Positions 1-63,966 of a DNA stretch of 64,000 nt are shown one piece after another. Source of the stretch: an uncultured Syntrophorhabdus sp. (GTDB lineage Bacteria; Desulfobacterota; BSN033; UBA1163). Made by a program: the position numbers and the translations under genes. The stretch is taken from positions 48,577 through 112,576 of the forward strand of contig CAYZFX010000003.1 in the NCBI GenBank assembly GCA_964477935.1, given 5' to 3'. Positions within the stretch are counted from its first letter, which is position 1; every line of letters starts with the position of its first letter. Under the pieces are notes generated by a model. It was not told the DNA's origin and did no database searches. It saw only the letters and a list, made by a program, of their open reading frames with translations.

Positions 1-1416
1 GATATTCTCAAAAGCAGGTATAGGAATGGGAAACAGGTGAAAGTCTTCACCATCGGAAGAGCAGGAGAAAACCTGGTCAAGTTTGCTGGGATCGGAAATG
101 ACAAGGGACATTTTGCAGGACGAACCGGGATGGGCGCCTTGATGGGGTCAAAGAAACTGAAGGCCATCGTCGTGCGTGGAAGCGGGTCATGCGAGCCAGC
201 AATGGTTGAAGAATACAATGCCCTCAGACGGGCGCTGATCGCAAAAGTCAATGCCTCTGTGCCTGCACAGGCGCTGAGGCAGATGGGAACCGATTCCGGC
301 ATGGACCTCGGAATGATGACCAACGATGTCCCTATCAAGAATTGGGTCTCTCCTCAGGATTTTGACCTTTCGTCAAATCTTGGAGGCCCCACCCTTACCG
401 AAAAGTATCTTGTGAAGCCCCATGCCTGTTATGCCTGTCCCATCGCGTGCAAGCGGGTGGTCAGGGTAGTCGACGGCCCTTATCAGACAGAGCAGGGACC
501 CGGACCTGAGTATGAGACCTGCTGCACCTTTGGCACGATGATCCTGAACAAAGACTTGGCAGGTGTCATCAAGGCAAATGAGCTCTGTAACAGGGCAGGC
601 ATGGACACCCTCTCAGGAGGGGTGGCCATTGCCTTTGCCTACGAATGCTACGAAAAAGGGATCCTCTCAAAGCAAGATACCGATGGTCTGAAGCTTAAAT
701 GGGGTGAAATCGATCCGGCCCTCCAATTGATTGAGATGATTCAGGAGAGAAAAGGAATAGGCGCGGTTTTAGCCGAGGGAACCAGAGAGGCCGCAAGACG
801 CATCGGAAGGGGAGCGGAGGAGTTCTTGGTCGAGGTGAAGGGGCTTGAGGCGCCCATGCACGACCCGAGGGGATATCATGGAATGGGCCTGGGTTATGCG
901 GTTTCGACAAGGGGAGCGTGCCATCTCCAGCACATGACACTCTATATAGAGCAGGGAATGTCAGCTTTCCCTGAGGCAGGGTTAAAGGCAAGTTACAGAG
1001 GTCCCGTCAGTGAAGGAAAGGCTCAGATGTACTTGATTTCCGAAAATCTTGGCGTCCCCTGCAATTCGGCTTGCCTCTGTATCTTCGTCCTCGGATGTCT
1101 TTCTGCGACTGACTTTGCAGAGATGTTGAGGGTAACAACCGGACACAAAGCGTTCGATGTCCAGGAACTGTTGAAATCCGGCCAGCGAATCAATCTTCTT
1201 AAAAGGACAATCAATTTCATCCTCGGAATGAGGAGAAAGGATGACCGATTGCCCAAAAGAATATTGACCCCCCTTGCCCCCGGAGAAAGCGTGCCTGACA
1301 TTGATCTGATGTTAAAGGAGTATTATGCGCTTCGAGGCCTGGATGAAACAGGCCGTCCGAAAAAGGAAACCCTTGAGGCCGCTGGCTTAAAAGATTTAAT
1401 TCCAAAACTCTATTGA
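1..1416 (+). CDS. Aldehyde:ferredoxin oxidoreductase (tungsten AOR family), 5' partial. The reading frame is open from base 1.
   Basis: The frame runs from the window start to a stop at 1414-1416. The translation resembles AOR-family C-terminal domains (KPHACYACPIACKR, GPEYE, GMDT motifs). The upstream part of the gene lies outside the window. Confidence 0.7.
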   Translation, partial: DILKSRYRNGKQVKVFTIGRAGENLVKFAGIGNDKGHFAGRTGMGALMGSKKLKAIVVRGSGSCEPAMVEEYNALRRALIAKVNASVPAQALRQMGTDSGMDLGMMTNDVPIKNWVSPQDFDLSSNLGGPTLTEKYLVKPHACYACPIACKRVVRVVDGPYQTEQGPGPEYETCCTFGTMILNKDLAGVIKANELCNRAGMDTLSGGVAIAFAYECYEKGILSKQDTDGLKLKWGEIDPALQLIEMIQERKGIGAVLAEGTREAARRIGRGAEEFLVEVKGLEAPMHDPRGYHGMGLGYAVSTRGACHLQHMTLYIEQGMSAFPEAGLKASYRGPVSEGKAQMYLISENLGVPCNSACLCIFVLGCLSATDFAEMLRVTTGHKAFDVQELLKSGQRINLLKRTINFILGMRRKDDRLPKRILTPLAPGESVPDIDLMLKEYYALRGLDETGRPKKETLEAAGLKDLIPKLY

Positions 1417-1872: not shown

Positions 1873-3036
1873 ATGGACTACACGAAAACTCTCAATTTCG
1901 TTTTCAGGCTTCCGACGAAGATCGTGTTCGGACCCGGGGCGGCAAAGGAAATCGGAATGGAAGTGGATGAATTCAAGAGAACCAAGGCGCTGATCGTCAC
2001 CGACCGGGATCTCATAAAAACGGACCTTATTCAAGTTGTTCGAAATGCCTTGGGGTCAAGATGCGCGGGCGTCTTCTCTGACGTTACTCCGGATACAGGT
2101 GTGCATATTGTTAATGCCGGAGCCGAATATGGAAGAGCGGTTGGAGCAGACATATTGGTCAGTGTCGGAGGGGGAAGCACCATAGATACAGCAAAAGGGA
2201 TGGCAATCTGTCTGACAAAAGGCGGCAAGCTCGAAGACCACGTAGGCCTCAATTTCCTCGATGGCCCGATCATGCCCCACATTGCCATCCCCACAACGGC
2301 TGGAACCGGAAGCGAGGTCACTTACGCCGCAGTGATTAAAGATCACGAACAAAAAAGAAAGCTGTTATTTGCAGACAACTACCTCGTCCCCAATGTAGCC
2401 ATCCTCGACCCGAAGATGACGACTGGGATGCCAAAGAGACTAACAGCGGCTACGGGGATGGATGCCTTGAGCCACTGCATCGAAGCGCTTCATTCCATGC
2501 AGAGGGAACCCATCGCAGACGCCCTCGCCTTTCATGGAATAAGGATGATCAGAGAATTTCTTCCAAAGGCAGTCGAAGATGGGGAGGATCTCATCGCCAG
2601 AGGACAGATGCTCATTGCCGCCACCCTTGCAGGAGCCGCCTTTTCGAACTCCCAGCTGGGGATTGTTCATGCCCTTGCACACCCCGTTGGAGCAAAATTC
2701 GGTGTCCCTCATGGCGTGGCCAACAGCATCCTTTTACCGCATTGCATCCTCTACAATCTTGACGCCTGCCCGGATCTTTACGCCCGAATCGCTCAGGCCA
2801 TGGGAAAAGAAGTGAGAGGAATGGACTCCCTGAAGGCGGCGGAACAGGCTGCGGTCGCCATCTGGGAGTTTACTAAAGCCTTAGGCCTGCCCCAGTCTTT
2901 AAGAGAGATGGGTGTGGAAAGATCCATGCTCGCCGAGTGTGCCAATGATGCTCTAATGGACGGAACCATCGTCTATAACCCAAAGCCGATCTTCGATCCG
3001 GATGAGATTTTAAAAATCTACAAGAAAGCACTCTGA
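1873..3036 (+). CDS. Iron-containing alcohol dehydrogenase
   Basis: 387 aa with the Fe-ADH GGGSTIDTAKG motif and conserved His-rich metal-binding region (HALAHPVG...PHG). Confidence 0.85.
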   Translation: MDYTKTLNFVFRLPTKIVFGPGAAKEIGMEVDEFKRTKALIVTDRDLIKTDLIQVVRNALGSRCAGVFSDVTPDTGVHIVNAGAEYGRAVGADILVSVGGGSTIDTAKGMAICLTKGGKLEDHVGLNFLDGPIMPHIAIPTTAGTGSEVTYAAVIKDHEQKRKLLFADNYLVPNVAILDPKMTTGMPKRLTAATGMDALSHCIEALHSMQREPIADALAFHGIRMIREFLPKAVEDGEDLIARGQMLIAATLAGAAFSNSQLGIVHALAHPVGAKFGVPHGVANSILLPHCILYNLDACPDLYARIAQAMGKEVRGMDSLKAAEQAAVAIWEFTKALGLPQSLREMGVERSMLAECANDALMDGTIVYNPKPIFDPDEILKIYKKAL

Positions 3037-3574: not shown

Positions 3575-4378
3575 TTATAACAAGTTAAATCTTTGATAAA
3601 TCTTTTCGGCAGGAAAAGTCGGCACAAACAGGGTGGGATAAATTAAAGGCAATGATTCGTCTTTTCCGATCACCAGATACCCTTTCTCCCTCAGGCTGTC
3701 GGCAATCTTTTTAAGGACGTTGATCTGACATTCTTTTGAGAAGTAAGTAAAGGCTAAATTCCGGCAAAAGACGATGTCCATTCCTAAAAGGGGGCCCTCT
3801 TCAAGGATATTGTGCTTTCTAAATTCCACACTCTCCCGGATCCTCCTGTCAAGGACGTATGAACCATTTTCGATAGCAAAATATCGTTTTAAGATGTACT
3901 CTGGAATCTCCCGGAGACTGCTCTTCTGATACCTCCCCTCTTCCGCTCTCCGAAGCATTTCCTCGTTGATGTCCGTGGCCAGGATGGAAAGACGAATCTC
4001 CGGATAATCCTTTGCAAATTTCTCTGTCCAGAGAAGTGAGATGCTGTAAGGTTCTTCGCCGCTGGCACATCCGATCGACCAGAGTTTCACTTCCCCTTTC
4101 TCTCTGCTTTTAAGAATCGATGGAAGGATGGAATGTTCGAGGGCACCGAAGACTTCTCTATCCCTGAAAAATCGTGAGATCGTGACCGTGAGGATCTTGG
4201 AGAGATGGCCCCTTTCTTCAGGATCCCTTTGAATCTTTAAGAGGTATTCATTGAAATGAGAAAACCCAACTTCGATGATCCTTCGCTCTATTTTTCGTTT
4301 GATCCCTCTCCTCTGGAAGGGCCGCCATTGAAGACCAAGAAGCGGTGCAACAACTTTGAGGAACTCATCAAAGGACAT
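3575..4378 (-). CDS. CheR-type protein-glutamate O-methyltransferase (SAM-dependent)
   Basis: 267 aa with the CheR signature TVTISRFFRD and a WSIGCASGEEPYS SAM-binding motif. It overlaps the ogt stop by 11 nt. Confidence 0.7.
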   Translation of the reverse strand: MSFDEFLKVVAPLLGLQWRPFQRRGIKRKIERRIIEVGFSHFNEYLLKIQRDPEERGHLSKILTVTISRFFRDREVFGALEHSILPSILKSREKGEVKLWSIGCASGEEPYSISLLWTEKFAKDYPEIRLSILATDINEEMLRRAEEGRYQKSSLREIPEYILKRYFAIENGSYVLDRRIRESVEFRKHNILEEGPLLGMDIVFCRNLAFTYFSKECQINVLKKIADSLREKGYLVIGKDESLPLIYPTLFVPTFPAEKIYQRFNLL

Positions 4379-4886
4379 GGGCCTTTTCGAAATCGAGAAG
4401 CTCTTTTTTCAACCGAAGTCCGTGGCCGAACCCACCCAAGCCACCATGGCTCTCGATCACCCTGTGGCAGGGGATGATCAGAGGGACGGGGTTTGCGCCA
4501 TTCGCATTTCCAACCGCTCGGAAGGCTCTTGGATGGCCGATCATCCGGGCAATCTCCTGATAGGAACGCGTCTCTCCATAAGGAATCCTCCTCAAGGCCA
4601 ACCAGACCTTCTTTTGAAAATGGGTTCCCTGCAGATCCAATTTGCAGTCAAAACGGTGGAGCTTGCCTTCGAGATACTTCTTCAGTTGAAAGAGGATGTT
4701 CTCGTTCTTTCGGTCATCATGCACAATCTCTCCTCGAAATCGCCTTTTCAACTCCTTTAAAAAACTTTTTTCAGGGGTTAAAAAATCCACCATGCAAACC
4801 CCCTTCTCGGTCGAAGCAACAAAGACCTTCTTTAACCATGGCGATTCAAACGAAGAATAATAGATTTTTCCCATCCTTTTCTCCAA
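4368..4886 (-). CDS. ogt: Methylated-DNA--protein-cysteine methyltransferase (Ogt/MGMT)
   Basis: 172 aa with the active-site PCHRV motif and helix-turn-helix (YGETRSYQEIA). Confidence 0.85.
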   Translation of the reverse strand: MEKRMGKIYYSSFESPWLKKVFVASTEKGVCMVDFLTPEKSFLKELKRRFRGEIVHDDRKNENILFQLKKYLEGKLHRFDCKLDLQGTHFQKKVWLALRRIPYGETRSYQEIARMIGHPRAFRAVGNANGANPVPLIIPCHRVIESHGGLGGFGHGLRLKKELLDFEKAHVL

Positions 4887-6038: not shown

Positions 6039-7490
6039 TCACCCTTTGATCACCCCCATGGGCACCAGTTTGACCACTTTAAGGCTGATGCCTGCCTGGT
6101 GGACTACATTGACCACATCATTTACATCTTTATAGGCCTCTGGAATCTCTTCCTGGATCGTCCCTTTGCTGGCACCCATCACAATGATCCCCTTATCTTC
6201 CATCTCTCTCACGAGCGCCCTGCCCTTGGCCGCCTTGATGGCTTGGTGGCGACTCAACACCCTTCCGGCTCCATGGCAAGTTGACCCAAACGTCTCCTCC
6301 ATCGCCCTCTCCGTTCCGACCAGGACGTAAGAACATCGACCCATGTCGCCTGGGATGAGGACAGGCTGCCCGACCGTTTGGTAACCTCTTGGGATGTCCC
6401 GGTGATGAGGTGGAAAGGCCCGGGTCGCTCCTTTCCGATGAACACAAACTCTCCTTTCTTCTCCATTGACCGAATGGGTCTCAATCTTAGCAATATTATG
6501 GCAGACGTCATAGACCAGACTGAGGCCGACGTCCCGCGGACCCCTCTGGAAGACCTGTTCAAAGGTCTCCCTCACCCAGTGGGAGATCATCTGCCGGTTG
6601 GCAAAGGCATAATTGGCGGCACATGCCATCGCTTGAAGATATCGCTCCCCTTCCGGCGAGGTGACAGGAGCGCAGCAGAGCTGAGGATCGGGTAGCTCGA
6701 TGCCGTACTTTTTCGCTGCATTCATCATCACCCGGATATAATCGTCACAGACCTGATGTCCTAAACCCCTTGAGCCGGTATGGACGAGAATGGTCACTTG
6801 GTCCTTCCATAATCCAAAGGTTTGTGCAACCCGTTCATCGAAGACCTCCGCCACATATCCCACCTCTACAAAGTGATTTCCGGACCCGACGGTCCCCAAT
6901 TGGGCCTTTCCCCTTTCCAAGGCCTTTTCAGAGATCTGATCTGGGTCGGCCCCTTCGATACAGCCCGACTCCTCGATGTGTTCGAGATCCTCTACCGTTC
7001 CAAAACCCCTTTCAACCGCCCATCTGGCCCCCTTTTTGAAGACCTGTCTCTCTTCATCCTTACTCAATCTGAGATCCTTCCGATGGGAACCTACGCCCGA
7101 AGGGATGTTGTGAAAGAGGGCTCCTACCAGCTCTTTCATCCTGCCCTCGATCTCCTTGCGGCTCAGACCTGAGCGCATCAGCCTGACCCCTCAGTTGATA
7201 TCATATCCGACCCCTCCGGGCGAAACGATGCCCTCATTCAGATCGAAAGCCGCCACCCCGCCGATGGGAAAACCGTACCCCCAGTGGATATCTGGCATGG
7301 CCAGAGAGGGACCGACGATTCCTGGTAGCCAGGCGACATGGGCGACCTGAGAGAGGCTCTGATCCTTGCGGATATCCTCCAGCATCCTTTCGTCCGCATA
7401 GACGATCCCATCGGTCCTCATCTTCCCCTCCTGTGGAATCCTCCACCGGTAGTCGTCGACCTTCTGGATTTTGATCTTCTCATCACCCAT
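6039..7490 (-). CDS. rtcB: RNA-splicing ligase RtcB, read through one in-frame TGA (7191-7193) as a putative selenocysteine
   Basis: ORFs 7191..7490 (RtcB N-terminus, [13 protein letters not shown]...GGVGYDIN) and 6039..7178 (RtcB C-terminus, [18 protein letters not shown]) are in the same frame. They are separated only by a TGA aligned with the conserved metal-ligand Cys of DINCGVRL. A GGUC-loop hairpin follows at 7157-7177. Confidence 0.75.
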
Positions 7491-7510: not shown

Positions 7511-7969
7511 TCAGAGATCCAGGATTACCCTGGCCTTCCATTCTCCATCCCTTTGTTTGACCTCGATCTGATGGTAGGTGACCGCCTTCACCACGGTTTT
7601 GATCTCGTGGATCTCCTCCTGAAAGAACTCTCCCTTAACGACCGCCCGCAGACCCTCCCCACCCACGGATTGAATGTCAAATCGATTGAAGAGGAGGGTT
7701 TCAACCTCATGGAGATAGAGGAGTTCGTTCAACCACTCGACCATCAATCGTTCCAGAGGCGCGGGAGGAAGCTCGATCAACCGCTCCTCTCTGGGCCTGA
7801 CCTTCTTAATATCGGTGATCAGGCTGAAGAAGGCCTCTCCCGCATTCTCAAAGAGGGTTTTAAGATCCTTCCCGTAAATGATCAATCCGATATCGGCCGT
7901 GTGATCGAGGATCTCAAAATGCCTCCCCTCCCTCCCAGTTCTAGCCCCTGAATGTGACGGTGATGCCAA
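7511..7969 (-). CDS. Archease (RtcB activator)
   Basis: 152 aa with the archease motif FEILDHTADIG. It sits 20 nt upstream of rtcB on the same strand. Confidence 0.8.
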   Translation of the reverse strand: MASPSHSGARTGREGRHFEILDHTADIGLIIYGKDLKTLFENAGEAFFSLITDIKKVRPREERLIELPPAPLERLMVEWLNELLYLHEVETLLFNRFDIQSVGGEGLRAVVKGEFFQEEIHEIKTVVKAVTYHQIEVKQRDGEWKARVILDL

Positions 7970-15915: not shown

Positions 15916-17115
15916 TTATCGCCCCAGCCTCTTCCTGAACTCCTCCTTGAGCATGGGGACGACAGTGAAGAGATCGCCCACAATCCCATAGGTGGCAATT
16001 TTGAAGATGGGAGCCTCAGGGTCCTTATTGATGGCGACAATGATGTCCGAGGTCTTCATTCCGGCCTGGTGCTGGATGGATCCCGAAATCCCGCAGGCAA
16101 TATAGATCTTCGGCCTGACCGTCCGGCCAGTCTGCCCCACCTGATGCTCGTAGGAGATCCATCCCGCATCCACCGCAGCCCGAGAGGCTCCGACCGCCGC
16201 GCCCAGGACTTCCGCCAGTTCCCGGACCACCCTGAAGTTTTCTGCGCCTCCGATCCCTCTGCCTCCTGAAACGATGATCTCCGCATCCGCAAGGTTGACC
16301 GTTTCAGTGCCCCTGATAAATTCAAGAACCTTTGTCCGGATCTGATCCTCGGTCATGGGCAGGGGCTCCCGGATGACCTCCCCCATTCTCCCATCATCCC
16401 TCCCGGGCATGGGAAAAACTTTCGGCCTCACCGTGGCCATCTGGGGGCGGTAATTGGGGTAGTCGAGGATGGTGGCCATGATATTTCCACCAAATGCGGG
16501 CCTTGTCTGTTTCAAATACTTCGTCTCCGGATCGATCTCCAGGCCCGTGCAGTCTGCCGTCAAGCCGGTCTCGAGGGTCGTGGCCACGGTGCCTGCAAAG
16601 TCTCTGCCCTGGATCGTGGCGCCTATGAGGACGATTTCAGGCCTGTATTTCCGGATGAGGTTGACCGCAGCACTGGCGTAAGGGTCGGTCCGGTAGGGCT
16701 CAAGCAATGGACTTTCTGTGGCATAGACGATTTCGGCTCCATAGGCGATCGCCTCCTTGACGAACTCCTCCACGTCGTTGCCCAAAACGAATCCACATAA
16801 TTTGCATCCGAGGGCATCGGCAAGCTTCCTCCCTTCGCCGAGAAGCTCGAAGGAGACACTCGAGACCTTTCGGTCCTCATGCTCAATGAAGACCCAGACA
16901 TCCTTATAGTTGGCGGTGTCGATCGTTACCGCCTTTTCATCCTTCTCCAAGGTGATGGCGTTAACCGGACAGACCTCCACGCAGGCCCCGCAGAAGGTGC
17001 ATTTTTCGTCAACGACCGCCACCCCCTCCTTCATGCTGAGGGCCCCGAAGGGACAGGCAGGGATACAGGCTTCACATCCCGTGCAGGTATTTTTATCGAT
17101 CAACAGGTTGGCCAT
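15916..17115 (-). CDS. etfA: Electron transfer flavoprotein alpha subunit with N-terminal 2x[4Fe-4S] ferredoxin domain
   Basis: Two CxxCxxCxxxCP motifs in the first 55 aa are followed by EtfA FAD-binding domains. Confidence 0.85.
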
Positions 17116-17166
17116 GCTCTCTCCTCCTCTATTCCTATGAATTGGTATTCCAGGGAGTCGCTTATC

Positions 17167-17979
17167 TTACTTGATGAATTTCGATTCCATCAATTTATCC
17201 ACCAGAAGGGGTACGACCTCGGTCAGCTCCCCTTTCAGGATCTCGCCTCCTCCTCTTGGCTCGGGGGTAAAGATTTTGGTCACCCAGGTGGGAGATCCCT
17301 TCAACCCGATGCGATTCTCGTCGGCATGGATATCTTTGGCAGTTAAAGTGGGGATCTGGGCCTTGGCCGCCTTTTTGATGCCGAGGAGCGAAGGGAGCCT
17401 CGGTTCGTTGATATCCTTGACCACGGTGATCAGGGCAGGTAGAGTAGCCTCGACCACCTCTTTTCCGTGCTCCAGAAGTCGCTCCACGATAATCTTCTTC
17501 TGTTCATTATTGATCTCCCTCACCTTACAGACATAGGTCAGCTGAGGAATCCCGAGCCGGGTGGCGATCCCTGGTCCAACCTGGGCCGTGTCTCCGTCAA
17601 TGGCCTGCTTGCCGCAGATCACAAGATCGGCTCCCCCGATATATTCGATCGTCTTGGAAAGGGCATAGGCGGTGGCTAAGGTATCCGACCCGGCTAAGGC
17701 CTTGTCTGAAAGGAGATAGACCTTGTCGCAACCGACCGCCAGGGCGTTCTTCAGGATCTCGACCGCCTGAGGAGGTCCCATGGTGATGACGTGGACCTCG
17801 CCGCCATACTTCTCTTTGGTCCGAAGCCCCTCTTCGATGGCGAACTCATCGAAGGGGTTGGTGATGCTGGCCACCCCCTCCCGGATCAGTGTATTGGTTT
17901 CGGGGTTGATCTTCACCTCTGCGGTCGTATCGGGAACCTGTTTGATGCAGACGACGATCTTCACTTCTCTCCTCCTCAT
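17167..17979 (-). CDS. etfB: Electron transfer flavoprotein beta subunit
   Basis: 270 aa with the EtfB N-terminus (MKIVVCIKQVPDT). It overlaps the crotonase stop by 4 nt. Confidence 0.85.
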   Translation of the reverse strand: MRRREVKIVVCIKQVPDTTAEVKINPETNTLIREGVASITNPFDEFAIEEGLRTKEKYGGEVHVITMGPPQAVEILKNALAVGCDKVYLLSDKALAGSDTLATAYALSKTIEYIGGADLVICGKQAIDGDTAQVGPGIATRLGIPQLTYVCKVREINNEQKKIIVERLLEHGKEVVEATLPALITVVKDINEPRLPSLLGIKKAAKAQIPTLTAKDIHADENRIGLKGSPTWVTKIFTPEPRGGGEILKGELTEVVPLLVDKLMESKFIK

Positions 17980-18758
17980 CTCCCCTTAAAAACGGGTTTT
18001 CTCTTCTCCACAAAGGCCCGCATCCCCTCTTTCTGATCCTCCGAGGCGAAGCCGATCCCGAAGGCATAGGCCTCGAGATTGCAGGCCTCTGTAAGGTCCA
18101 TATTGAAGCCGCTATCAATCACCATCTTCGCCAGCCTCACCCCGACCGCCCCATTGGCAGCGATCTGTAGCGCAACCTTCTTCGTCTCATCCATGAGGGT
18201 GGCCTGAGGAACGACCCTGTTGACGATGCCCATCTCCAGGGCCTCCTGGGCGCTGATCATCTTGCCGGTGTAGATCAATTCCTTTGCTTTGGCCTTTCCG
18301 ATCAGACGAGGGAGTCGCTGGGTACCGCCGAAGCCGGGAAAGATTCCGAGGGTCACCTCCGGGAGGCCAAATCTGGCATTCTCCGAGGCATAGATGAAAT
18401 CGCAGGCCAGGGCGATCTCCGTTCCTCCACCCAAGGCGAACCCGTTCACGGCGGCAATCACCGGACAGTGAAAATCCTGCAACATTTTCAGGGTATGGTG
18501 GCCTGCCCGTGAAAAATTGAGGGCCTCGATCGAATTCATCTCCTTCATCTCGAGAATATCGGCTCCCGCCACAAAGGCCTTCTCTCCCGCTCCGGTGACG
18601 ATGAGGACCTTCAACTCCGGATGTTCCTTGGCCTCATTGAGAGCCATCTGGATCTCCTGAAGGGTCTCCCGGTTTAGGGCGTTGAGCGCCTTCGGTCGGT
18701 TGATCGTCAGAATTCCGATCTCCCCTTCAAATGAGACTAAAATATTTTTGTATTCCAT
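17976..18758 (-). CDS. Enoyl-CoA hydratase (crotonase family)
   Basis: 260 aa with crotonase-fold motifs (AFVAGADI, ALGGGTEIALACD). Confidence 0.85.
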   Translation of the reverse strand: MEYKNILVSFEGEIGILTINRPKALNALNRETLQEIQMALNEAKEHPELKVLIVTGAGEKAFVAGADILEMKEMNSIEALNFSRAGHHTLKMLQDFHCPVIAAVNGFALGGGTEIALACDFIYASENARFGLPEVTLGIFPGFGGTQRLPRLIGKAKAKELIYTGKMISAQEALEMGIVNRVVPQATLMDETKKVALQIAANGAVGVRLAKMVIDSGFNMDLTEACNLEAYAFGIGFASEDQKEGMRAFVEKRKPVFKGR

Positions 18759-18845
18759 TCTTCCTCCTATTGGGTGTCCGTGTCTGTTTTCCGTGTCCGT
18801 ATTCTTTTACGGTCTCGTGACACTCGACACGGTCACGGGTCACTC

Positions 18846-20129
18846 CTAACTCCTTTCGACAATCATGGCCATTCCCTGGCCGCCACCGATGCAAAGCGTA
18901 GCCAGTCCGAGTTCCACGTTCCTCCTTCTCATCTCGTAAAGGAGCGAAACGATTAACCTGGCCCCAGTGCATCCGATCGGATGGCCTAAAGAGATCCCGC
19001 TTCCATTCACATTGGTCTTCTCAAGATCGAACTTCAGCTCCCGAATACAGGCGATCGCCTGGGAGGCAAATGCCTCATTCAGCTCGGTCAGTCCAATGTC
19101 TCCGAGAGAAAGGCCTGCCTTCTTCAAAACCTTTCTCACCGCGGGAATGGGACCCAGACCCATGTAGGCTGGATCGATCCCAGCAGAGGCATAGGCCTTG
19201 ATCTTCCCCAAGGGCTCCAATCCGAATTCTTTCGCCTTTTCCCTCGACATCAGAAGGACCGCGGCGGCGGCGTCATTGATCCCGGAGGCATTCCCTGCCG
19301 TCACCGTGCCCCCGGATTTGAAGGCCGTGGGGAGCTTGGCCATCTTCTCAAGAGTGGTATCCATCGGTCTTTCGTCCGTTTCAAAGAAGAGAGGTTCTCC
19401 TTTTTTCTGGGGAATGGCCACAGGAACGATCTCTTCCTTAAAAATCCCCTTCTGGATCGCAGCCCTTGCCCTCTGATGGCTAAGCAAGCCCAACTCATCC
19501 TGTTCCTTTCTCGAGATGCCGTACTTTTCGGCAATATTTTCAGCCGTCATCCCCATATGGTATCCATAGAAGATCTCAAAGAGCCCGTCGAAGACCATGA
19601 GATCGACCATCTCCTGGTTGAACATCCTGGCACCCCACCGTCCCTGGGGAAAGGCATAGGGGACCTGGCTCATGTTCTCCATCCCTCCCGCGATAACCAC
19701 CTCAGCTTCGCCTGCTTGAATGGCCTGCGCTCCCAGGGCAATCGCCTTGAGACCCGAGGCACAGACCTTATTGATGGTAAAGGCGGTTGTCTCCTTTGGG
19801 ACGCCGCCGAGAATGAGGGCCTGCCGGGCCGGATTCTGTCCCTGTCCGGCCTGAAGCACATTGCCCATAATCACCTCGTCCACCTCGATCTCTTTGAGAG
19901 AGGCATCCCATTGATCATAACCCTTTTCAAGGTCGGTCATCCCCGTCCCTTTCAGCAGGTCCGGAGCGATCTCAACATCCTCCTTTCTGGCCACAGGCTT
20001 CAGGCCCGCCTTTTTCAAAACCTCTCGGATCACAGTGGCTCCTAACTTCACCACCGGGACATCTTTTAGCGAACCTCCAAAACTGCCGATAGCCGTCCTC
20101 GCCCCGGTTACAATTACAACCTCTCTCAT
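18846..20129 (-). CDS. Acetyl-CoA C-acetyltransferase (thiolase)
   Basis: 427 aa with thiolase active-site regions (NKVCASGLKA, GHPIGCTGAR). Confidence 0.9.
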   Translation of the reverse strand: MREVVIVTGARTAIGSFGGSLKDVPVVKLGATVIREVLKKAGLKPVARKEDVEIAPDLLKGTGMTDLEKGYDQWDASLKEIEVDEVIMGNVLQAGQGQNPARQALILGGVPKETTAFTINKVCASGLKAIALGAQAIQAGEAEVVIAGGMENMSQVPYAFPQGRWGARMFNQEMVDLMVFDGLFEIFYGYHMGMTAENIAEKYGISRKEQDELGLLSHQRARAAIQKGIFKEEIVPVAIPQKKGEPLFFETDERPMDTTLEKMAKLPTAFKSGGTVTAGNASGINDAAAAVLLMSREKAKEFGLEPLGKIKAYASAGIDPAYMGLGPIPAVRKVLKKAGLSLGDIGLTELNEAFASQAIACIRELKFDLEKTNVNGSGISLGHPIGCTGARLIVSLLYEMRRRNVELGLATLCIGGGQGMAMIVERS

Positions 20130-36455: not shown

Positions 36456-37040
36456 TCAATGAAGACCAAAGACTTCCTGGATGGCCGATATGGCTTCCAA
36501 TGAGTTCCACTCCCTCTGGCCGACGATCACTCCCTCCATCCACCCTTCCTGATTGATCAGATAAGCTGTCGGAATCATCCGGACGCCGTAGACCCTTGCG
36601 ATCCTCTCCTTCTGGTCAAGGAGGACAGGAAGGGTGATCCGGTATTCTTTAATGGTCGCCCGAACCTTCTTTTCCCTCTCCCCATCAACGGCAATGGTAA
36701 GGATCTCCAACCGTCCCCTAAACCGATCGTAAAATTTTTCCAGAAGGACCAGATCTTCCTTGCACGCCTGACACCAGGATCCCCAGAAGAAGAGAAGCAA
36801 CGGCTTCCCTTTGTAATCCCTCAGGGTCACCTCCTTCCCTCCCAGATCTCTCAGGAAGAAGGCAGGGGGTTCTCTCTTCATATCGAACCGATGAATCCCA
36901 AGAGACTCGCAAGGGTTTGTCTTCGAAGGAGGGGGCAGCATGGCCTGCGCCCCAACCTTCGAGATCAGGATCGGGAAGAGGAGACCCAGAAAGAGCCACT
37001 TTCGTCCTTTCCCCCTTTTGAAAAGCTGCAGACGTTCCAT
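36456..37040 (-). CDS. TlpA-like thiol:disulfide oxidoreductase (thioredoxin fold), secreted
   Basis: Signal peptide and a WCQAC active site. Confidence 0.7.
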   Translation of the reverse strand: MERLQLFKRGKGRKWLFLGLLFPILISKVGAQAMLPPPSKTNPCESLGIHRFDMKREPPAFFLRDLGGKEVTLRDYKGKPLLLFFWGSWCQACKEDLVLLEKFYDRFRGRLEILTIAVDGEREKKVRATIKEYRITLPVLLDQKERIARVYGVRMIPTAYLINQEGWMEGVIVGQREWNSLEAISAIQEVFGLH

Positions 37041-55166: not shown

Positions 55167-56953
55167 TTACTCTCCACCTTTATATAACTTTTCGATCACA
55201 TCCTTATAGGCCTCATTGATCGCCTTTCGCTTCACCTTCATGGTGGGCGTCACCTCCCCATCTTCTTCGTAAAGCTTCTTGGGGATGATGGCGAATTTCT
55301 TCACCTGCTCCACCTGAGCGAGGGTCTTATTGACCCGATCTACCTCCTTCTGGATCAACTGTCTGATCTCCGGTGCCTGGGTGAGGCTGGCATAGGTACT
55401 GAACTGGATCTTGTGATCCTGAGCGTATTTGATCACATTCTCTTCGTCGATGGCGATGAGGGCCACGAGGTACTTCCGGCGATCTCCAATGACGATGGCA
55501 TCGTTGATGTAAGGGCTGAACTTTAACTGATTCTCGATGTTCTGGGGAGCGATGTTCTTTCCTCCCGCAGTGATGATCAGATCCTTCTTCCGATCGGTGA
55601 TCTTCAGGAACCCATCCTCATCCAGTTCACCGACGTCTCCTGAGTGAAGCCATCCCTCCTTGAGCGTCTCCGCCGTCGCCTCAGGATTTTTAAAATAGCC
55701 CTTGAAGACGCCCGGGCCTCTCACCAGGATCTCTCCATCCTCGGCAATCTTCACCTCTACACCTGGCAAAGGTTGACCGACCTTTCCGATCTTGAGTCGT
55801 CCCTTCTGGCTGACACTCGTAACCCCCGTCCCCTCGGTCTGACCGTAACCCTCTACAAGCGGAAGCCCGATGGCGTTAAAAAACTTCAATACCTCGGGAG
55901 AGATGGGAGCGGCGCCCGAATAGGCGATCCTCACCCGATCGAACCCCAAACGCTCCTTCAGTTTGCGAAAGACGGCTGCATAGGCAGCCAGATAGGCCGC
56001 CTTCAAATAGAGGGGAATGGGTTTAAAGTTCAACTTCAGATCGGCATACTTCATGCCGATTCCCATAGAGGCTTTGAAGACGGTCCGTTTGAACCAGGTG
56101 GCATCGGCCATCCGGATCATGATGCCTGAAGCATACTTCTCCCAGATTCGGGGAACCCCGCAGGTGACCGTCGGAGAGACTTCTCTCATATTCTCCATGA
56201 CCGTATCCGGGCTCTCGATGAAATTGCATACGGTCCGGTATCGAATATTGATCATCACGGTGAAGAGCTGTTCAAAAATGTGACACAAGGGAAGATAAGA
56301 GAGGGTCTCATCGCCGTCCTTCACCGGATTCACCCGGGTCATGGCCTCGCTCATAAAGAGGAGGTTGGCATGGGTGAGCATAGCTCCCTTCGGAGGGCCT
56401 GTCGTACCGGAGGTATAGATGAGAACAGCGAGGTCCTCCGGTTTGACTTCATTCAGGCGCTGGTCAAAAAGACCTGGATGTTTCTCATCGTACTCTTTCC
56501 CCAGCTCTAATAGGTCGTCGAAACTCATCAGGAGGGGATCGGGATACCGTTTCAACCCCTCCATGTCCATCACGATCACCTTCTCGAGATGGGGGGTATC
56601 CTTTCTGAATTTGAGGGTCTTGTCGAACTGTTCCTCATTCTCGGCAATGTAGAACCTCGAACCGGAGTTCTGGACGATGTAACCGCACTGTTCGGGGGCA
56701 TTGGTGGTATAGATTCCGGCGGTCACTCCGCCTGCCGACATGATTCCGAAGTCGGCATAGACCCATTCCGGACGGTTTTCGCTGATGATGGAGACGCACT
56801 GATCAGGCCCATGGCCACCTGTCTCACCTTCTCGCCATACTGTTTCCAGGTGACATCGTGCCAGATTCCGTAATCCTTATGGCGTAAGGCCACCCGGTCG
56901 GGACACTCTTTAACATTTTTATAAAAATAGGTGAGAAGGGTCTCGTGGCTCAT
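55167..56953 (-). pseudogene. Long-chain acyl-CoA synthetase (AMP-binding), disrupted by a frameshift/short deletion near 56797
   Basis: ORF 56723..56953 encodes the N-terminus up to ...VRQVAMGL. ORF 55167..56741 encodes the remainder, with homology running upstream of its first M in a different frame (VSIISENRPEWVYADFGIM). About 5 expected residues between GL and ENRPEW are missing. Confidence 0.55.
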
Positions 56954-59510: not shown

Positions 59511-61289
59511 ATGGTCGAATTCGTCAAAGGGGGGGCGTTTCTGATCGAGTCGACTTCGCCCCAGGAGGTCTTCACGCCGGAGGACTTCAATGAAGAACAG
59601 CTCTTGATTGCCAAGGCCGTGACCGAATTTGTGGAAGGCGAAATCCATCCCGTAAGCGAGGAGATCGAGGAGAAGAAAGAAGGCCTTCTGGTGAGCCTCC
59701 TCAGGAAGGCTGGGGAGCTCGGCTTCCTTTCCGCGGACATCCCGGAGGAATACGGAGGACAGGATCTGGATAAGGTCAGCTCTCTCCTCCTCTGGGAGAA
59801 GATGGCTCAGGCAGGGGGGTCTTTTATGGCGACGTTTGGCACGCAAACCGGAATTGGATCCCTTCCCATTGTCTTCTTCGGAAATCCGGACCAGAAGCGG
59901 CGGTATCTTCCTGGGCTGGCCACGGGAAAGATCATCGGCGCCTATGCCCTGACCGAACCGGAAGCGGGTTCGGACGCCCTTAACGCCAAGACCACGGCCA
60001 CCCTCAGTCCCGATGGGAAATATTATATCCTCAACGGTCAGAAGCAGTTCATCACCAATGCCGGCATTGCGGACCTCTTCACCACCTATGCCAAGGTGGA
60101 TGGAACGAAATTCACCGCCTTCCTCGTCGAACGAAAGTATGAAGGGGTTTCTCTGGATGAGGAAGAGAATAAGATGGGGGTGAAGGGTTCCTCCACCCGG
60201 AGCGTAATCTTCTCCGACGTTAAGGTCCCTGTGGAAAATGTCCTCGGAGAGGTCGGAAGGGGACACATCGTAGCTCTCAACGTGCTCAACATGGGTCGTT
60301 TCGCCCTGGGAGCAGGGAACTTAGGAGGAGCGAAGCGGGCTCTCCAGGAATCTGTCTCTTATGCCAAAAAGAGGGTCCAGTTTGGCAGGCCCATTGCTGA
60401 ATTCGGCCTGATCAAAGAAAAGATCGCCGAAATGGCCATCCTCTGCTTTATCATGGAGAGCATGGTCTACCGAACCGGAGGGTTGACCGATCAGATTCTC
60501 AAAACCATCGACCGTCAAGCCGAGGACGCCATGACCCAGATGGCCAACGGGATCGAGGAATACAATATTGAAGATTCGATCAATAAGATCTTCTGCTCCG
60601 AAATGACCGGCCATGTGGTGGATGAGGCGGTTCAGATCCACGGGGGATATGGGTATATTCACGACTACCCGGTGGAGCGGGGGTATCGGGATGCCCGGAT
60701 CAATCGCATCTGGGAGGGGACGAACGAAATCAACCGTCTTCTCATCGTGGACATGTTAACGAAGCGTGCGATGAAGGGACGACTCCCTGTCCTTGCGGCC
60801 ACTCAGAAGATTGTTGGAGAGCTGCTCAGCCTCCGGCCCCGAATCGAGAGCGATGATGGAAAATTAACCATGCAACAGGAGATGGTCGAGATGTCAAAAA
60901 AGATCACCCTCCTGGTGACCGGAGCGGCTGTGCAGAAATATATGATGAAACTCGCCGAGGAACAGGAACTCCTGGGGTTAATCAGCGATATGGTGATTCA
61001 GGTATTTGCGATGGAGAGCGGACTGCTTCGAGCCATGAAGACCCTCGAGAGATTTGGGGACGAAAGAGCTCAGATCCAGAAAGCGATGGCAAAGGTCTTT
61101 GTCAACGACGCCTTTGAAAGGCTGGAGGGCTATGCCAAAAGAGGACTTACCGCCGTGGCTGAGGGAGATACCCTCAGGACCCAGCTCTCCGGTCTCAAGA
61201 AGCTCACCCGTTTCACCCCGGTCAATACGATCGCTCTGAGGCGGGAGATCGCAGATGCCGTGATTAAGGCGGGTAGGTATCCCTTTTAG
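59511..61289 (+). CDS. Acyl-CoA dehydrogenase (long form with C-terminal extension)
   Basis: 592 aa with ACAD N-terminal, middle and C-terminal domains (YALTEPEAGSDA, QIHGGYGY). Confidence 0.85.
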   Translation: MVEFVKGGAFLIESTSPQEVFTPEDFNEEQLLIAKAVTEFVEGEIHPVSEEIEEKKEGLLVSLLRKAGELGFLSADIPEEYGGQDLDKVSSLLLWEKMAQAGGSFMATFGTQTGIGSLPIVFFGNPDQKRRYLPGLATGKIIGAYALTEPEAGSDALNAKTTATLSPDGKYYILNGQKQFITNAGIADLFTTYAKVDGTKFTAFLVERKYEGVSLDEEENKMGVKGSSTRSVIFSDVKVPVENVLGEVGRGHIVALNVLNMGRFALGAGNLGGAKRALQESVSYAKKRVQFGRPIAEFGLIKEKIAEMAILCFIMESMVYRTGGLTDQILKTIDRQAEDAMTQMANGIEEYNIEDSINKIFCSEMTGHVVDEAVQIHGGYGYIHDYPVERGYRDARINRIWEGTNEINRLLIVDMLTKRAMKGRLPVLAATQKIVGELLSLRPRIESDDGKLTMQQEMVEMSKKITLLVTGAAVQKYMMKLAEEQELLGLISDMVIQVFAMESGLLRAMKTLERFGDERAQIQKAMAKVFVNDAFERLEGYAKRGLTAVAEGDTLRTQLSGLKKLTRFTPVNTIALRREIADAVIKAGRYPF

Positions 61290-61313
61290 AAACAGATCTT
61301 AAAAGGGACGTCG

Positions 61314-61499
61314 TCATCCCTCAGTCAAGGGAACAAAAAGGGCTTGATTCAATGAAAGACGGAGGCTCGCCTCAAAAGAACCCCATTCAAAAGGCAGGAA
61401 GATCCATGGGGGTCACTTCAATGCCCGCCATTCAAGGTTTTTGGAGGGGGAATCTCCCAACCCTTTTGAACCCATGTGACCCCGTACCTGAGGGATTAC
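61314..61499 (+). mobile_element. MITE-like repeat, copy 4 (186 bp), with perfect 12 bp TIRs GTCATCCCTCAG/CTGAGGGATTAC and perfect 8 bp direct repeats GGGACGTC (61306-61313 and 61500-61507)
   Basis: It lacks an internal ~38 bp segment present in copies 1 and 2. It lies between the acyl-CoA dehydrogenase and the beta-lactamase-family gene. Confidence 0.8.
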
Positions 61500-61618
61500 G
61501 GGACGTCCCCATTTCCCTTGAGAGGAAGGGAGGTCACCTCCAAGAACGGCCGAGGGTCCTCTCAAAAGAGATACCAAAGGCCTCCGTATCCGTAAGGGAG
61601 AGAGAAAGGAGGAAAGCC

Positions 61619-62881
61619 ATGCGAAACGTGATCCGGATCCCTGCTGTCGCCATTCTTCTTACCTTTCTTCTTGGGACGGCGATAGCCCAGGACCTCCAAC
61701 AAGCAAGAGGCCCGGAAGAAGTCGGTCTATCTTCGGAAAGGCTCCAACGCCTGGATGCGGTTTTAAAAGGGGATATCGAATGGGGTAAAATCAATGGAGC
61801 GGTCCTCCTGATCGCCCGTAAGGGAAAGATCGCCTACTTTAAGAATTTCGGCTGGAGAGACGCTGAAAAGAGATTACCAATGGAAAAGGATTCGATCTTT
61901 CGAGTCTACTCCATGACGAAATCAATCACGGCCGTCGCCACGGCCATGTTCATGGAAGAGGGGAAGATCCTCCTCTCCGACCCCGTCGCCAAATATATCC
62001 CCTCCTTTAAGGAAATCCAGGTGGGAGAGATCAAAAAAGATGAGACAGGAAAAGAGGTACTCTCTCTGGTGGCGCCCAGGACGGCCATGACGATCTATGA
62101 CTTACTCCTCCACACCTCAGGCCTGAGCTACTTCTTCTTTCCTCCAAGGCTTATCCAGGAAAGGTATCTGGCGGCTGGAATGCACCGCCTCGAAGAATTG
62201 ACCAATGCAGAGGTCTGTGAGAGATTGGCCAGATTGCCTCTGGTGGCCCATCCGGGAACCCGTTATCAGTACGGCATGTCGTATGACGTCTTGGGAAGAG
62301 TGCTGGAAGTCATCTCTGGAAGGCCTCTCGATCAACTTTTTGAAGAACGGATATTTAGACCGCTCAAGATGAAGGATTCGGGATTTCGGGTCAAAGAATC
62401 CGAAGCCAATCGCCTCGTATACCTCGACCCCAAAGTACCCATTTATATTGATCCGACGAGCCCAGTGAGGAGATATATGAGCGGCGGAGCAGGAACCGTA
62501 TCGACGGCCATGGACTTTGCTCGTTTCGCTCAGATGCTTCTCAACGGAGGAGAGATTGACGGGGTCCGGTTGCTCAGTTCGAGAACCGTCTCCTATATGA
62601 CCACAGATCACTTAGGGCCGTTGGGACACCGGGATGATCCCCTCTATGTTCCAGGCCGGGGGTACGGTCAGGGCTTCGATTTCTATGTTCGTCTCGAAAC
62701 GGGACGATCCACCTTTTTGGGTAACCCCGGAGAATTCTACAAGGGAGGGATTGCAGGAACCCATTTCTGGGTCGATCCCAAAGAAGCATTGGGGGCTGTC
62801 TTTATGGTCAGCGCCCCAGATTATCGAGAGTACTACCGGTTTCTGATCAAAAGCCTGATATACCAGGCCATTATGATGTAA
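61619..62881 (+). CDS. Serine hydrolase of the beta-lactamase/transpeptidase-like family, secreted
   Basis: Start at MRNVIRIP after a GGAGG RBS. Signal peptide and an S-x-x-K motif (SMTKS). The ORF-track start at 61352 would run through the MITE. Confidence 0.75.
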   Translation: MRNVIRIPAVAILLTFLLGTAIAQDLQQARGPEEVGLSSERLQRLDAVLKGDIEWGKINGAVLLIARKGKIAYFKNFGWRDAEKRLPMEKDSIFRVYSMTKSITAVATAMFMEEGKILLSDPVAKYIPSFKEIQVGEIKKDETGKEVLSLVAPRTAMTIYDLLLHTSGLSYFFFPPRLIQERYLAAGMHRLEELTNAEVCERLARLPLVAHPGTRYQYGMSYDVLGRVLEVISGRPLDQLFEERIFRPLKMKDSGFRVKESEANRLVYLDPKVPIYIDPTSPVRRYMSGGAGTVSTAMDFARFAQMLLNGGEIDGVRLLSSRTVSYMTTDHLGPLGHRDDPLYVPGRGYGQGFDFYVRLETGRSTFLGNPGEFYKGGIAGTHFWVDPKEALGAVFMVSAPDYREYYRFLIKSLIYQAIMM

Positions 62882-62947
62882 AAAGACGACGACGGAAATT
62901 AACGACCTGAAAAAGTTCCGGGACTCCCTTTCTTCAACCCTGTCCCC

Positions 62948-63184
62948 ATGATGGAAGTGATGGAGGTCATCGAAGGCATGAGGGCTTCTGAAGAGACGAT
63001 GAGGACCGGGGTGAATTTTGTAAAAACGATCGGCAAAGAACCCACCCGCGTCGAAAGCGATATATCGGGTTTTCTCCTCAACCGGATCAATCTCGTGGGT
63101 TATATCGAAGCCATTCGCCCGCTGGAACAGGGGATCGGCGAAACCGTTGAGGATATCGATAGGGGCGTAAGAAGGAGAAATTAA
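62948..63184 (+). pseudogene. Remnant of a 3-hydroxyacyl-CoA (3-hydroxybutyryl-CoA) dehydrogenase, internal fragment only
   Basis: 78 aa that match only the mid/C-terminal-domain region of Hbd-type enzymes (EVIEG...SEET...IGK.P..V.D.SGFLLNRI...YI.EAIR..E.G....EDID). The NAD-binding N-terminus and the last about 65 aa are absent. Confidence 0.5.
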
Positions 63185-63966
63185 TGGGCCAGACACTCGC
63201 TTATTACGAACTCAGAGGTCCAATCGCCATTGTTACCATCGATCACCCGCCGATGAATGCCCTGGATGCCGCTACCAAAGAGGCTATTGCCGGTATCTTC
63301 GGGGAACTGGATGACCAAAGGCAGCAGATCCGGGCCGTTATTCTCCGGGGCGCTGGAGAGAAGGCCTTTGCCGCGGGGGCGGACATCAAAACCTTCTTAG
63401 AATTGACACCGGACACGGCCAGGAGGCGCCTCTCGAGGAGCCACCAGATCTATTCGATTGTCGAAAACTTCCAATGGCCGGTGATTGCGGCCATCCACGG
63501 TTTCTGTTTGGGCGGGGGATTGGAGCTGGCCCTTTGTTGTGATATCCGCTATGCGGAGGAGACAGCCAAGTTCGGTTTCCCAGAGGTGAACCTTTCGGTT
63601 TTTCCGGGCAATGGAGGGGTTGCCCGTTCTCTCTATCATCTCCCTTTGGGTAAATTGAAAGAGCTCGTCTTCACTGGCGAAATCATCAGTGCCCAGGAGG
63701 CGCTCTCCCTCGGCCTGATCGAAAGGGTGGTTCCGGCAAACCAAAGCCTCGAGGCCTGTCTCGAACTGGCCTCCAAAATTGCCGAGAAGGGGCCATTGGG
63801 AGTGGCCGCAGGGAAAAAGGTGATCAATCGGGCGAGAGATCTTACGATTCAACAAGGATTGGAACTGGAGACGGAATGGTGGGCCAATCTGACCGCAACG
63901 GAAGATATGAAAGAGGGCGCTCGGGCCTTCTTGGAAAAAAGAAAACCGCAATATAAATGCAAATGA
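63184..63966 (+). CDS. Enoyl-CoA hydratase (crotonase family)
   Basis: 260 aa with crotonase motifs (AFAAGADI, CLGGGLELALCCD). The ATG overlaps the stop of the hbd remnant. Confidence 0.85.
   Translation: MGQTLAYYELRGPIAIVTIDHPPMNALDAATKEAIAGIFGELDDQRQQIRAVILRGAGEKAFAAGADIKTFLELTPDTARRRLSRSHQIYSIVENFQWPVIAAIHGFCLGGGLELALCCDIRYAEETAKFGFPEVNLSVFPGNGGVARSLYHLPLGKLKELVFTGEIISAQEALSLGLIERVVPANQSLEACLELASKIAEKGPLGVAAGKKVINRARDLTIQQGLELETEWWANLTATEDMKEGARAFLEKRKPQYKCK

Follow-up and report, generated by a model that had tools for sequence, protein, structure and literature searches.

A gene of the RtcB RNA ligase family, interrupted by a single in-frame UGA, was found on the minus strand of a 64-kb stretch of DNA from an uncultured Syntrophorhabdus sp. 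(contig CAYZFX010000003.1, positions 48,577–112,576), the whole of which is referred to here as the window. The RtcB coding sequence, including the UGA, occupied 6039..7490 (minus strand). An archease gene (PF01951, E = 3e-44, Pfam annotation; 7511..7969, minus strand) was located directly upstream, approximately 20 nucleotides (nt) from the RtcB start and on the same strand. Archease is the activation cofactor of RtcB, and the two genes probably form one operon. The UGA (7191..7193, minus strand) was followed by a candidate bacterial selenocysteine insertion sequence (SECIS) hairpin at 7157..7177 (minus strand), recognized from comparative evidence. We consider it highly probable, from sequence comparison, that the UGA at codon 100 encodes selenocysteine (Sec) and that the gene specifies a functional RNA ligase.

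The RtcB gene and its in-frame UGA

In minus-strand translation, the N-terminal open reading frame (ORF; 7490..7191) stopped at the TGA at 7193..7191, immediately after the peptide GGVGYDIN. Past this codon, the frame stayed open for 383 codons, up to a stop codon at 6041..6039, and the TGA was the only in-frame stop. When the halves were joined, the gene comprised 483 codons plus the stop codon and translated into a 483-residue RtcB with U at residue 100, as delineated by ORF translation and comparison with PF01139 homologues. By family, the product is a predicted 3'-phosphate/5'-hydroxyl RNA ligase.

Residues 7–483 of the joined protein aligned with Thermus thermophilus TTHA1785 (2epg; E = 1.5e-186) and with Pyrococcus horikoshii RtcB (1uc2/4dwq; E = 3e-177). 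The UGA coincided with the Cys of the motif DINCGVRL in TTHA1785 and with Cys98 of P. horikoshii RtcB. Homologues with PF01139 were full length and up to 83% identical to the window RtcB, and Cys occupied the UGA position in all 119 of the closest full-length homologues (69–83% identity). The original prediction, made from the letters of the window, had placed the UGA at the conserved metal-bridging Cys and had proposed an alignment of homologues as a check; the correspondence between UGA and Cys was exact. In P. horikoshii RtcB, the Mn2+ sites are formed by Cys98/His234/His329 and Asp95/Cys98/His203, H404 is the guanylylated His, and mutation of the Cys to Ala renders RtcB ligase-dead (PMC10630183). 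Cys98 binds both Mn ions, in agreement with the predicted role of the residue as a ligand of both active-site metals (PMC10630183). The other catalytic residues were conserved in the window RtcB as D97, N205/H206, H237, H331 and H406, equivalent to P. horikoshii D95, N202/H203, H234, H329 and H404. All metal-binding and guanylylation residues were present, with the UGA standing at the position of C98.

The UGA codon in related strains and species

The codon was checked against independent data in place of raw reads. A contig of the Logan assembly of SRA run SRR8369793 (L245) originated from a different strain, with 97.2% nucleotide identity to the window over 9.3 kb. The RtcB gene of this strain differed from that of the window at 26 nucleotides (21 synonymous, 5 non-synonymous) and carried the same TGA, and the surrounding 60 nt were identical. 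N-terminal fragments found separately in JGI, ENA and Logan data likewise terminated at GGVGYDIN. The TGA was therefore seen both in a second strain and in fragments from other data.

To estimate how widespread the TGA form is, the degenerate DNA pattern G-[YF]-D-I-N-TGA-G-V-R was run on species-representative genomes (596 Gb), for which approximately 2 chance matches were expected according to our own estimate from the information content of the pattern. The pattern matched at least 120 species genomes; the counts of complete TGA loci and the nearest TGA relatives reported here refer to the matches listed. All 120 matches listed were RtcB genes in which the frame ran on through the TGA. By record title, approximately 55 belonged to the Thermodesulfobacteriota ('Deltaproteobacteria'), 27 to the Nitrospirota, 24 to the Acidobacteriota and 14 to other taxa, among them Binatia, Eisenbacteria, Gemmatimonadales, Polyangiaceae and Planctomycetota. 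The TGA form was thus present in at least five phyla. In 95 of the 98 downstream-complete loci listed, the TGA was followed by 378–396 open codons, as in the Cys forms. Local frameshifts or a masked stretch were observed in three loci (L039, L066 and L068), after which the RtcB frame resumed; these lesions are most likely errors in the assembly of metagenome-assembled genomes (MAGs). Comparison of the window RtcB with the four nearest TGA relatives gave dN/dS values of 0.024–0.060 before the UGA and 0.034–0.055 after it, with dS of approximately 0.8–2.6 in the same comparisons. Since the downstream frames were intact and dN/dS was low on both sides of the UGA, both halves of RtcB appear to be translated and strongly constrained.

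These data bear on the possibility that the UGA is a nonsense mutation in a pseudogene, or a sequencing or assembly error at a true TGC or TGT codon. One base change is enough to turn TGY into TGA, MAG assemblies do err, as in the three loci with local frameshifts, and the assembly of the window itself holds at least one frameshifted gene (see below). Nevertheless, this explanation is effectively refuted by the sharing of the TGA with an independent strain and assembly, with independent fragments and with at least 120 species, by the low dN/dS after the stop and the intact downstream frame in 95 of 98 loci, and by a hairpin that is specific to the TGA forms (next section). Neither of the marks of a pseudogene, relaxed selection after the stop and a lesion not shared with relatives, was found.

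A reassigned genetic code in which UGA is read as Trp or Gly (table 4 or 25) would also remove the interruption, and the in-frame UGA itself, but nothing more, speaks for it. TGA terminated 29 of the 62 ORFs in the window and was the commonest ordinary stop codon, so UGA is not globally reassigned. No other Pfam-annotated gene of the window was found to need read-through of a TGA, and the remaining in-frame TGA codons in the window fell in non-coding frames or between adjacent genes in one frame. UGA was thus in use as a stop, in-frame UGAs were not widespread, and the position in RtcB aligned with Cys rather than with Trp or Gly. Code reassignment is refuted by these observations, in line with the original prediction, which had considered it unlikely on the grounds that every other gene in the window was intact. 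The premise itself held only in part, as an AMP-binding (acyl-CoA synthetase-like) gene at approximately 56950..55167 (minus strand) was frameshifted, with the junction near 56,780–56,800; the argument about the genetic code is unaffected. The first approximately 60 residues of this gene (MSHETLLTYFYKNVKECPDRVALRHKDYGIWHDVTWKQYGEKVRQVAMGLIS) were in another frame than its body (CVSIISENRPEWVYADFGIMSAGGV). This frameshift is an assembly error or a pseudogene and not a case of TGA or Sec, and it indicates that the assembly is not perfect.

Other interruptions were seen in the contig of the second strain, in which an iron-containing alcohol dehydrogenase gene (L245:6252-7413) and an aldehyde:ferredoxin oxidoreductase gene (L245:7870-9732) were each called in two pieces. 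In the window, the alcohol dehydrogenase gene (1873..3036) and the included part of the aldehyde:ferredoxin oxidoreductase gene (37..1416, cut by the window start) were uninterrupted. The breaks in the second strain are probably assembly errors or strain-specific lesions. The window ORFs at 4368..4886 and 36456..37040 (both minus strand) were also uninterrupted and had no in-frame TGA.

The frequency of the TGA form was estimated from an unselected metagenome scan that allowed TGA, TGC or TGT (TGH) at the codon and yielded 117 usable RtcB genes. TGA was present in five of these genes (4.3% of RtcB genes of this type, 95% CI 1.4–9.7%) and a Cys codon in the other 112. A rough neighbour-joining tree was built from 87 Sec and 194 Cys forms; Sec and Cys were interleaved in it, with approximately 20 changes by parsimony. 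The nearest relatives of the window RtcB among the matches listed were Sec forms (L034, 86%; L053, L120 and L096; overall range 83–86% identity), followed on the tree by Cys forms with approximately 82.5% identity to the window RtcB. The gene order FlK thioesterase, archease, RtcB, DUF1786, Ogt and CheR was common to the window, the second strain (L245) and three contigs with Cys forms (L241–L243); the Cys forms are therefore true orthologues. Sec/Cys pairs among orthologues, the existence of which had been proposed as a check on the original prediction, were accordingly found, with at least 120 TGA species on one side and, for the window gene, syntenic Cys orthologues at 82–83% and Sec orthologues at 83–86% identity.

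One of the Cys orthologues, with TGC at the codon, had retained the hairpin unchanged, with the loop GGUC (L241:4298-4360). In three others (L242–L244, with TGC or TGT), the loop was GGGU, and the GU at the position equivalent to that in fdhF was lost. The hairpin in these Cys orthologues looks like a fossil SECIS left by a recent Sec-to-Cys reversion in a clade whose ancestral state was Sec. The peptide RSGLSR or RSGLER, which is encoded by the hairpin in Sec forms, was kept in 32 of 119 close Cys homologues, consistent with a fossil SECIS.

The hairpin downstream of the UGA

The window hairpin (5'-UGCGCUCA-GGUC-UGAGC(C)GCA-3') consisted of 8 bp with one bulged C on the 3' side and the apical loop GGUC at 7169..7166, and it encoded the peptide (M)RSGLSR. 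It started 13 nt after the UGA (nucleotide 16, counting the U of UGA as 0) and had a folding energy of −9.3 kcal/mol. The centre of the hairpin in TGA genes lay at i+j = 51/52, and in those of the Nitrospirota at 67/68 (U of UGA = 0). A hairpin at this fixed offset was present in 116 of 125 TGA genes, compared with 12 of 112 genes with a Cys codon (TGY; Fisher p = 1.3e-41). Minimum free energy (MFE) z-scores also differed between the TGA and TGY sets (Mann–Whitney p = 7e-7), and the difference held against TGY genes of matching GC content.

The stem changed from clade to clade with the pairing kept, and the encoded peptide changed along with it. The stem GCGCUCA/UGAGC-GC encoded RSGLSR, GAAGACC/GGUCUUC encoded KTSLVF, GCGCUCC/GGAGCGC encoded RSGLER, GCGCUC/GAGCGY encoded RSVLSV and GAGAACC/GGUUCUC encoded RTGLVL. 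A single fixed pairing register for all short hairpins was rejected, since two registers, with and without the 3' bulge, coexisted among them; the counts in each register are diluted for this reason. Among 81 distinct sequences, 78.9% of positions were paired in the bulged register, compared with 28–48% when the partner was slid, and the covariation score of the unbulged register was 0.232, compared with 0.129 for shuffles. In neither register was the observed pairing or covariation reached by any of 500 shuffles.

Constraint on synonymous codons was assessed in 47 distinct TGA genes with the identical peptide GVR-L-x-RSGLSR. Third-position entropy fell from 1.64–1.78 bits in the four codons preceding the hairpin to 0.00–0.75 bits within the stem. 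For the Arg of the stem, CGC was used in 47 of 47 genes, whereas the Arg three codons upstream used five different codons. Ser was always UCN in the 5' arm and always AGY in the 3' arm, and Leu was always YUG. The hairpin is under selection at the RNA rather than the protein level. If it is a SECIS, it illustrates how such an element constrains the peptide that it overlaps, as in RSGLSR, KTSLVF and RSGLER.

In the short type of hairpin, G was present at loop positions 24 and 25 in 80 and 79 of 90 sequences, respectively, so that a stem-loop with a small, G-containing apical loop was in place. The SECIS-like element that a selenoprotein gene should carry was thus found as a TGA-specific, covarying hairpin at a fixed offset, with the apical motif of Escherichia coli fdhF. 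Nitrospirota (e.g. L026, L020, L088 and L114) had a hairpin of 11 bp with a 9-nt, A-rich loop, starting 16 nt past the UGA. It was 81% paired, compared with 38–61% when slid, and showed compensatory changes in four pairs, a count matched in 3 of 500 shuffles. A second hairpin with the UGA itself in the stem (UGAGGGG...CCUCA) was often observed in the Nitrospirota.

Several observations weigh against selenocysteine insertion at this codon. Taken alone, the window hairpin was thermodynamically not significant (z = −0.96 for the 28-nt hairpin), and the MFE fold of the 41-nt context was an alternative pairing with the codons just past the UGA; the MFE fold of the 67-nt context was also other than the hairpin. 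Because single-sequence thermodynamics cannot support a SECIS here, we relied on the comparative tests. The Rfam SECIS families gave no match to the hairpin at gathering or permissive thresholds, and only chance snoRNA and miRNA matches with E >1 were returned. The Nitrospirota loop lacked the GU motif and departed from the E. coli model; the element of this phylum may reflect a different mode of SelB recognition. Neither selA, selB, selD (Pfam annotation of the window ORFs) nor a tRNA-Sec gene (ARAGORN) was found in the 64-kb window, and none of the four was found beside RtcB in 120 loci of 8 kb, although both negatives are uninformative. The Pfam annotation took in all predicted window ORFs, with the exception of a spurious-looking one that overlaps a tRNA gene. 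As a further caution, no residue beyond residue 100 stood out in separating Sec from Cys forms (mutual information ≤0.27). There was likewise no sign of second-shell adaptation in the Sec forms, and the discriminating columns were not clustered just after the Sec codon as predicted. Finally, an engineered P. horikoshii RtcB with Sec98 was reported to cleave itself spontaneously (PMC4150793), so that tolerance of Sec at this position cannot be taken for granted.

Two other ways of dealing with the UGA were considered. The first is a split RtcB, in which translation stops at the UGA and restarts at an ATG at +5, giving polypeptides of 99 and 379 residues that assemble without the Cys. Gene callers do annotate two pieces (P0020 and P0122), and the window RtcB has a Met at +5. 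However, Met was present at +5 in only 36 of 125 TGA genes, the rest having Leu, Val or Ile, and GVRL (+1 to +4) was strictly conserved as protein even though it lies ahead of any restart. The essential metal ligand, whose replacement by Ala abolishes ligation (PMC10630183), would be missing from both fragments, and the selection on the hairpin at the RNA level would be left unexplained. We therefore regard a split enzyme as very improbable.

The second is read-through independent of SelB, in which a Trp, Cys, Arg or Gly tRNA, near-cognate or acting as a suppressor, reads the UGA and the hairpin serves as a generic stimulator, or else insertion of Cys by the Sec machinery when selenium is scarce. 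Structures downstream of a stop codon can stimulate read-through, and the Nitrospirota hairpin without a canonical GU loop would fit such a role. Against this, the UGA occurred only at the codon of an invariant, catalytically essential Cys, at which Trp, Arg or Gly could not bind the metals, and the loop was identical to the SelB-binding loop of fdhF. Moreover, Sec and Cys were interchanged in both directions over the tree, a hallmark of selenoproteins (PMC1088965), and among the host phyla are those of the bacteria richest in known selenoproteins (PMC9312934). Read-through of this kind is improbable, if somewhat less so than a split enzyme.

Recoding of the UGA as Sec is the best explanation for the recurrence of the TGA, the TGA-specific hairpin, the synonymous constraint, the interleaving of Sec and Cys forms and the fossil hairpin taken together. 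The central proposal of the original prediction, a Sec-containing RtcB, is supported by the exact UGA–Cys match, the Sec/Cys pairs and the TGA-specific, covarying hairpin. Criteria for the recognition of a bacterial selenoprotein have been published (PMC1088965), and each of the features they name was observed, i.e., a UGA–Cys pair, conserved flanks on both sides, a stem-loop and recurrence among Cys forms. The Sec trait is plausible in the host, given the richness in selenoproteins of some bacteria of the host phyla (PMC9312934).

In the proposed mechanism, the mRNA hairpin 13 nt past the UGA would be bound by SelB with GTP and Sec-tRNA(Sec) when the ribosome reaches the UGA. SelB would compete with release factor 2 to deliver Sec, and translation would run on for 383 codons. 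Nucleotide 16 after the U of UGA, where the hairpin begins, is roughly where the mRNA leaves the ribosome with UGA in the A site. The nucleotides of the competing pairing in the 41-nt fold would then sit inside the ribosome. In the folded enzyme, the selenolate of Sec100 would replace the Cys thiolate and bind both Mn2+ of the guanylylation and ligation centre together with D97, H206, H237 and H331, with H406 as the guanylylated His. RtcB synthesis would, as a consequence, depend on the supply of selenium. SelB binding and Sec insertion are inferred here from the sequences.

Sec is oxidized reversibly and has a much lower pKa than Cys. Because of these properties, a Sec ligand could protect against permanent inactivation or hold the metal more tightly. 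The most plausible candidate for an advantage, although speculative, is that the metal-binding residue would resist irreversible over-oxidation. Alternatively, and equally speculatively, the lower pKa of Sec could tune metal affinity or tighten metal binding. The RtcB Cys is a known vulnerability of the enzyme: it is oxidized in aerobically purified preparations, and animals, including humans, guard it by PYROXD1 and thioredoxin (PMC10630183, PMC12263435, PMC10653391, PMC13247085).

The window also gave an indication of the metabolism of the host. Of two beta-oxidation-type clusters, one (15916..20129, minus strand) encoded a thiolase, an enoyl-CoA hydratase, EtfB and an EtfA with an N-terminal ferredoxin domain, and the other (59511..63966, plus strand) an acyl-CoA dehydrogenase and a second enoyl-CoA hydratase. 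Together with the aldehyde:ferredoxin oxidoreductase at 37..1416, this gene content fits an anaerobic, possibly syntrophic, fatty-acid-degrading host from the Thermodesulfobacteriota.

Novelty and comparison with known systems

A literature search combining RtcB or 'splicing ligase' with selenocysteine or selenoprotein returned only the engineered U98 enzyme, with paywalled papers and RefSeq records outside the search. RtcB (PF01139) was absent from the family table of a May 2026 review that catalogues 119 prokaryotic selenoprotein families and subfamilies, and the word 'ligase' appeared nowhere in it (PMC13188914). Selenoproteome papers of 2005, 2021 (Deltaproteobacteria), 2022, 2025 (deep-Sep) and 2026 did not list RtcB, nor did the supplements of the 2021 and 2025 papers. 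RtcB reviews of 2023 and April 2026 contained no word beginning with 'selen', and NCBIfam (June 2026) had no model for an RtcB selenoprotein. Both the enzyme family and this mode of recoding are known; their combination in a Sec-containing RtcB appears to be undescribed.

In the protein collection searched, TGA-RtcB genes were stored as split fragments (99 and 379 aa) and not at full length. None of the four closest TGA genes (83–86%) was present at full length among the homologue matches, although they would have outscored all others, and an exact look-up of P0020 returned no encoding contig. A dedicated annotation model would correct such split RtcB calls.

A wider proposal is that the Sec form of RtcB constitutes a widespread, uncatalogued family and the first selenoenzyme to act in RNA ligation or repair, in which Sec was selected against over-oxidation of the ligand of two Mn2+; we put this forward as possible but rather doubtful in its full extent. 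If it is true, Sec-RtcB would be a bacterial, genetically encoded solution to a weakness for which animals rely on PYROXD1 and thioredoxin, and RNA repair or tRNA ligation in these organisms would also depend on the supply of selenium. To our knowledge, redox enzymes make up nearly all of the selenoproteins known so far. As RtcB is a ligase that works by GTP-dependent nucleotidyl transfer, Sec as a ligand shared by two Mn2+ would be a role not described before. The Sec/Cys pairs with 82–86% identity and identical neighbourhoods offer a natural experiment on Sec in relation to oxidative inactivation or metal preference.

The window RtcB shares its family, fold, length and catalytic residues with the canonical Cys forms (P. 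horikoshii PH1602, T. thermophilus TTHA1785, E. coli and human RTCB), and an adjacent archease gene is likewise shared. It differs from them in having UGA as the codon of the metal-bridging Cys and an mRNA hairpin in the codons just after it. The catalogued selenoprotein families (PMC13188914) rest on the same computational features as those seen in RtcB, i.e., a UGA/Cys pair, conserved flanks, a stem-loop with G, and a scattered distribution with a majority of Cys forms. While most of these families are thiol-oxidoreductase-like, RtcB is a GTP-dependent RNA ligase without a redox motif.

The engineered P. horikoshii RtcB U98 (UTu system, PMC4150793) carries Sec at the same residue of the same enzyme. 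It is artificial, produced via UAG and EF-Tu, and reported to be self-cleaving, whereas the natural TGA forms are under strong purifying selection, and a natural Sec-RtcB is presumably stable. Cys98 is also the intein splice junction in P. horikoshii RtcB (PMC4150793), and the insertion point of the intein-containing RtcB model (NCBIfam NF038162) maps to residue 99/100 of the window RtcB. The window RtcB was rejected as an intein-containing form, as it scored 760.6 bits against a cutoff of 1150, matched extein segments only and was of normal gene length; residues 99–483 matched profile positions 578–961. Two unusual genetic events in the RtcB family, intein insertion and Sec recoding, would thus both map to the codon of the catalytic Cys.

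The closest parallel to the hairpin was the verified SECIS of E. coli fdhF, which encodes formate dehydrogenase H (FdhH), the reference selenoprotein of bacteria. The fdhF element (TGACACGGCCCATCGGTTGCAGGTCTGCACC) was found under fdhF ('selenocysteine-containing') in approximately 5,400 genomes. In both fdhF and the window RtcB, an in-frame UGA is followed by a hairpin inside the coding sequence. The apical CA-GGU-CUG of fdhF (loop GGUC, closed by A-U and C-G) was identical to that of the RtcB hairpin and in the same codon phase. The RtcB loop was located 3 nt (one codon) further from the UGA, and its hairpin had a bulged C on the 3' side, in contrast to the bulged U on the 5' side in fdhF. 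The FdhH protein is unrelated to RtcB, which is not a redox enzyme. The Sec of FdhH is a ligand of the catalytic metal, and the predicted Sec of RtcB would share this role.

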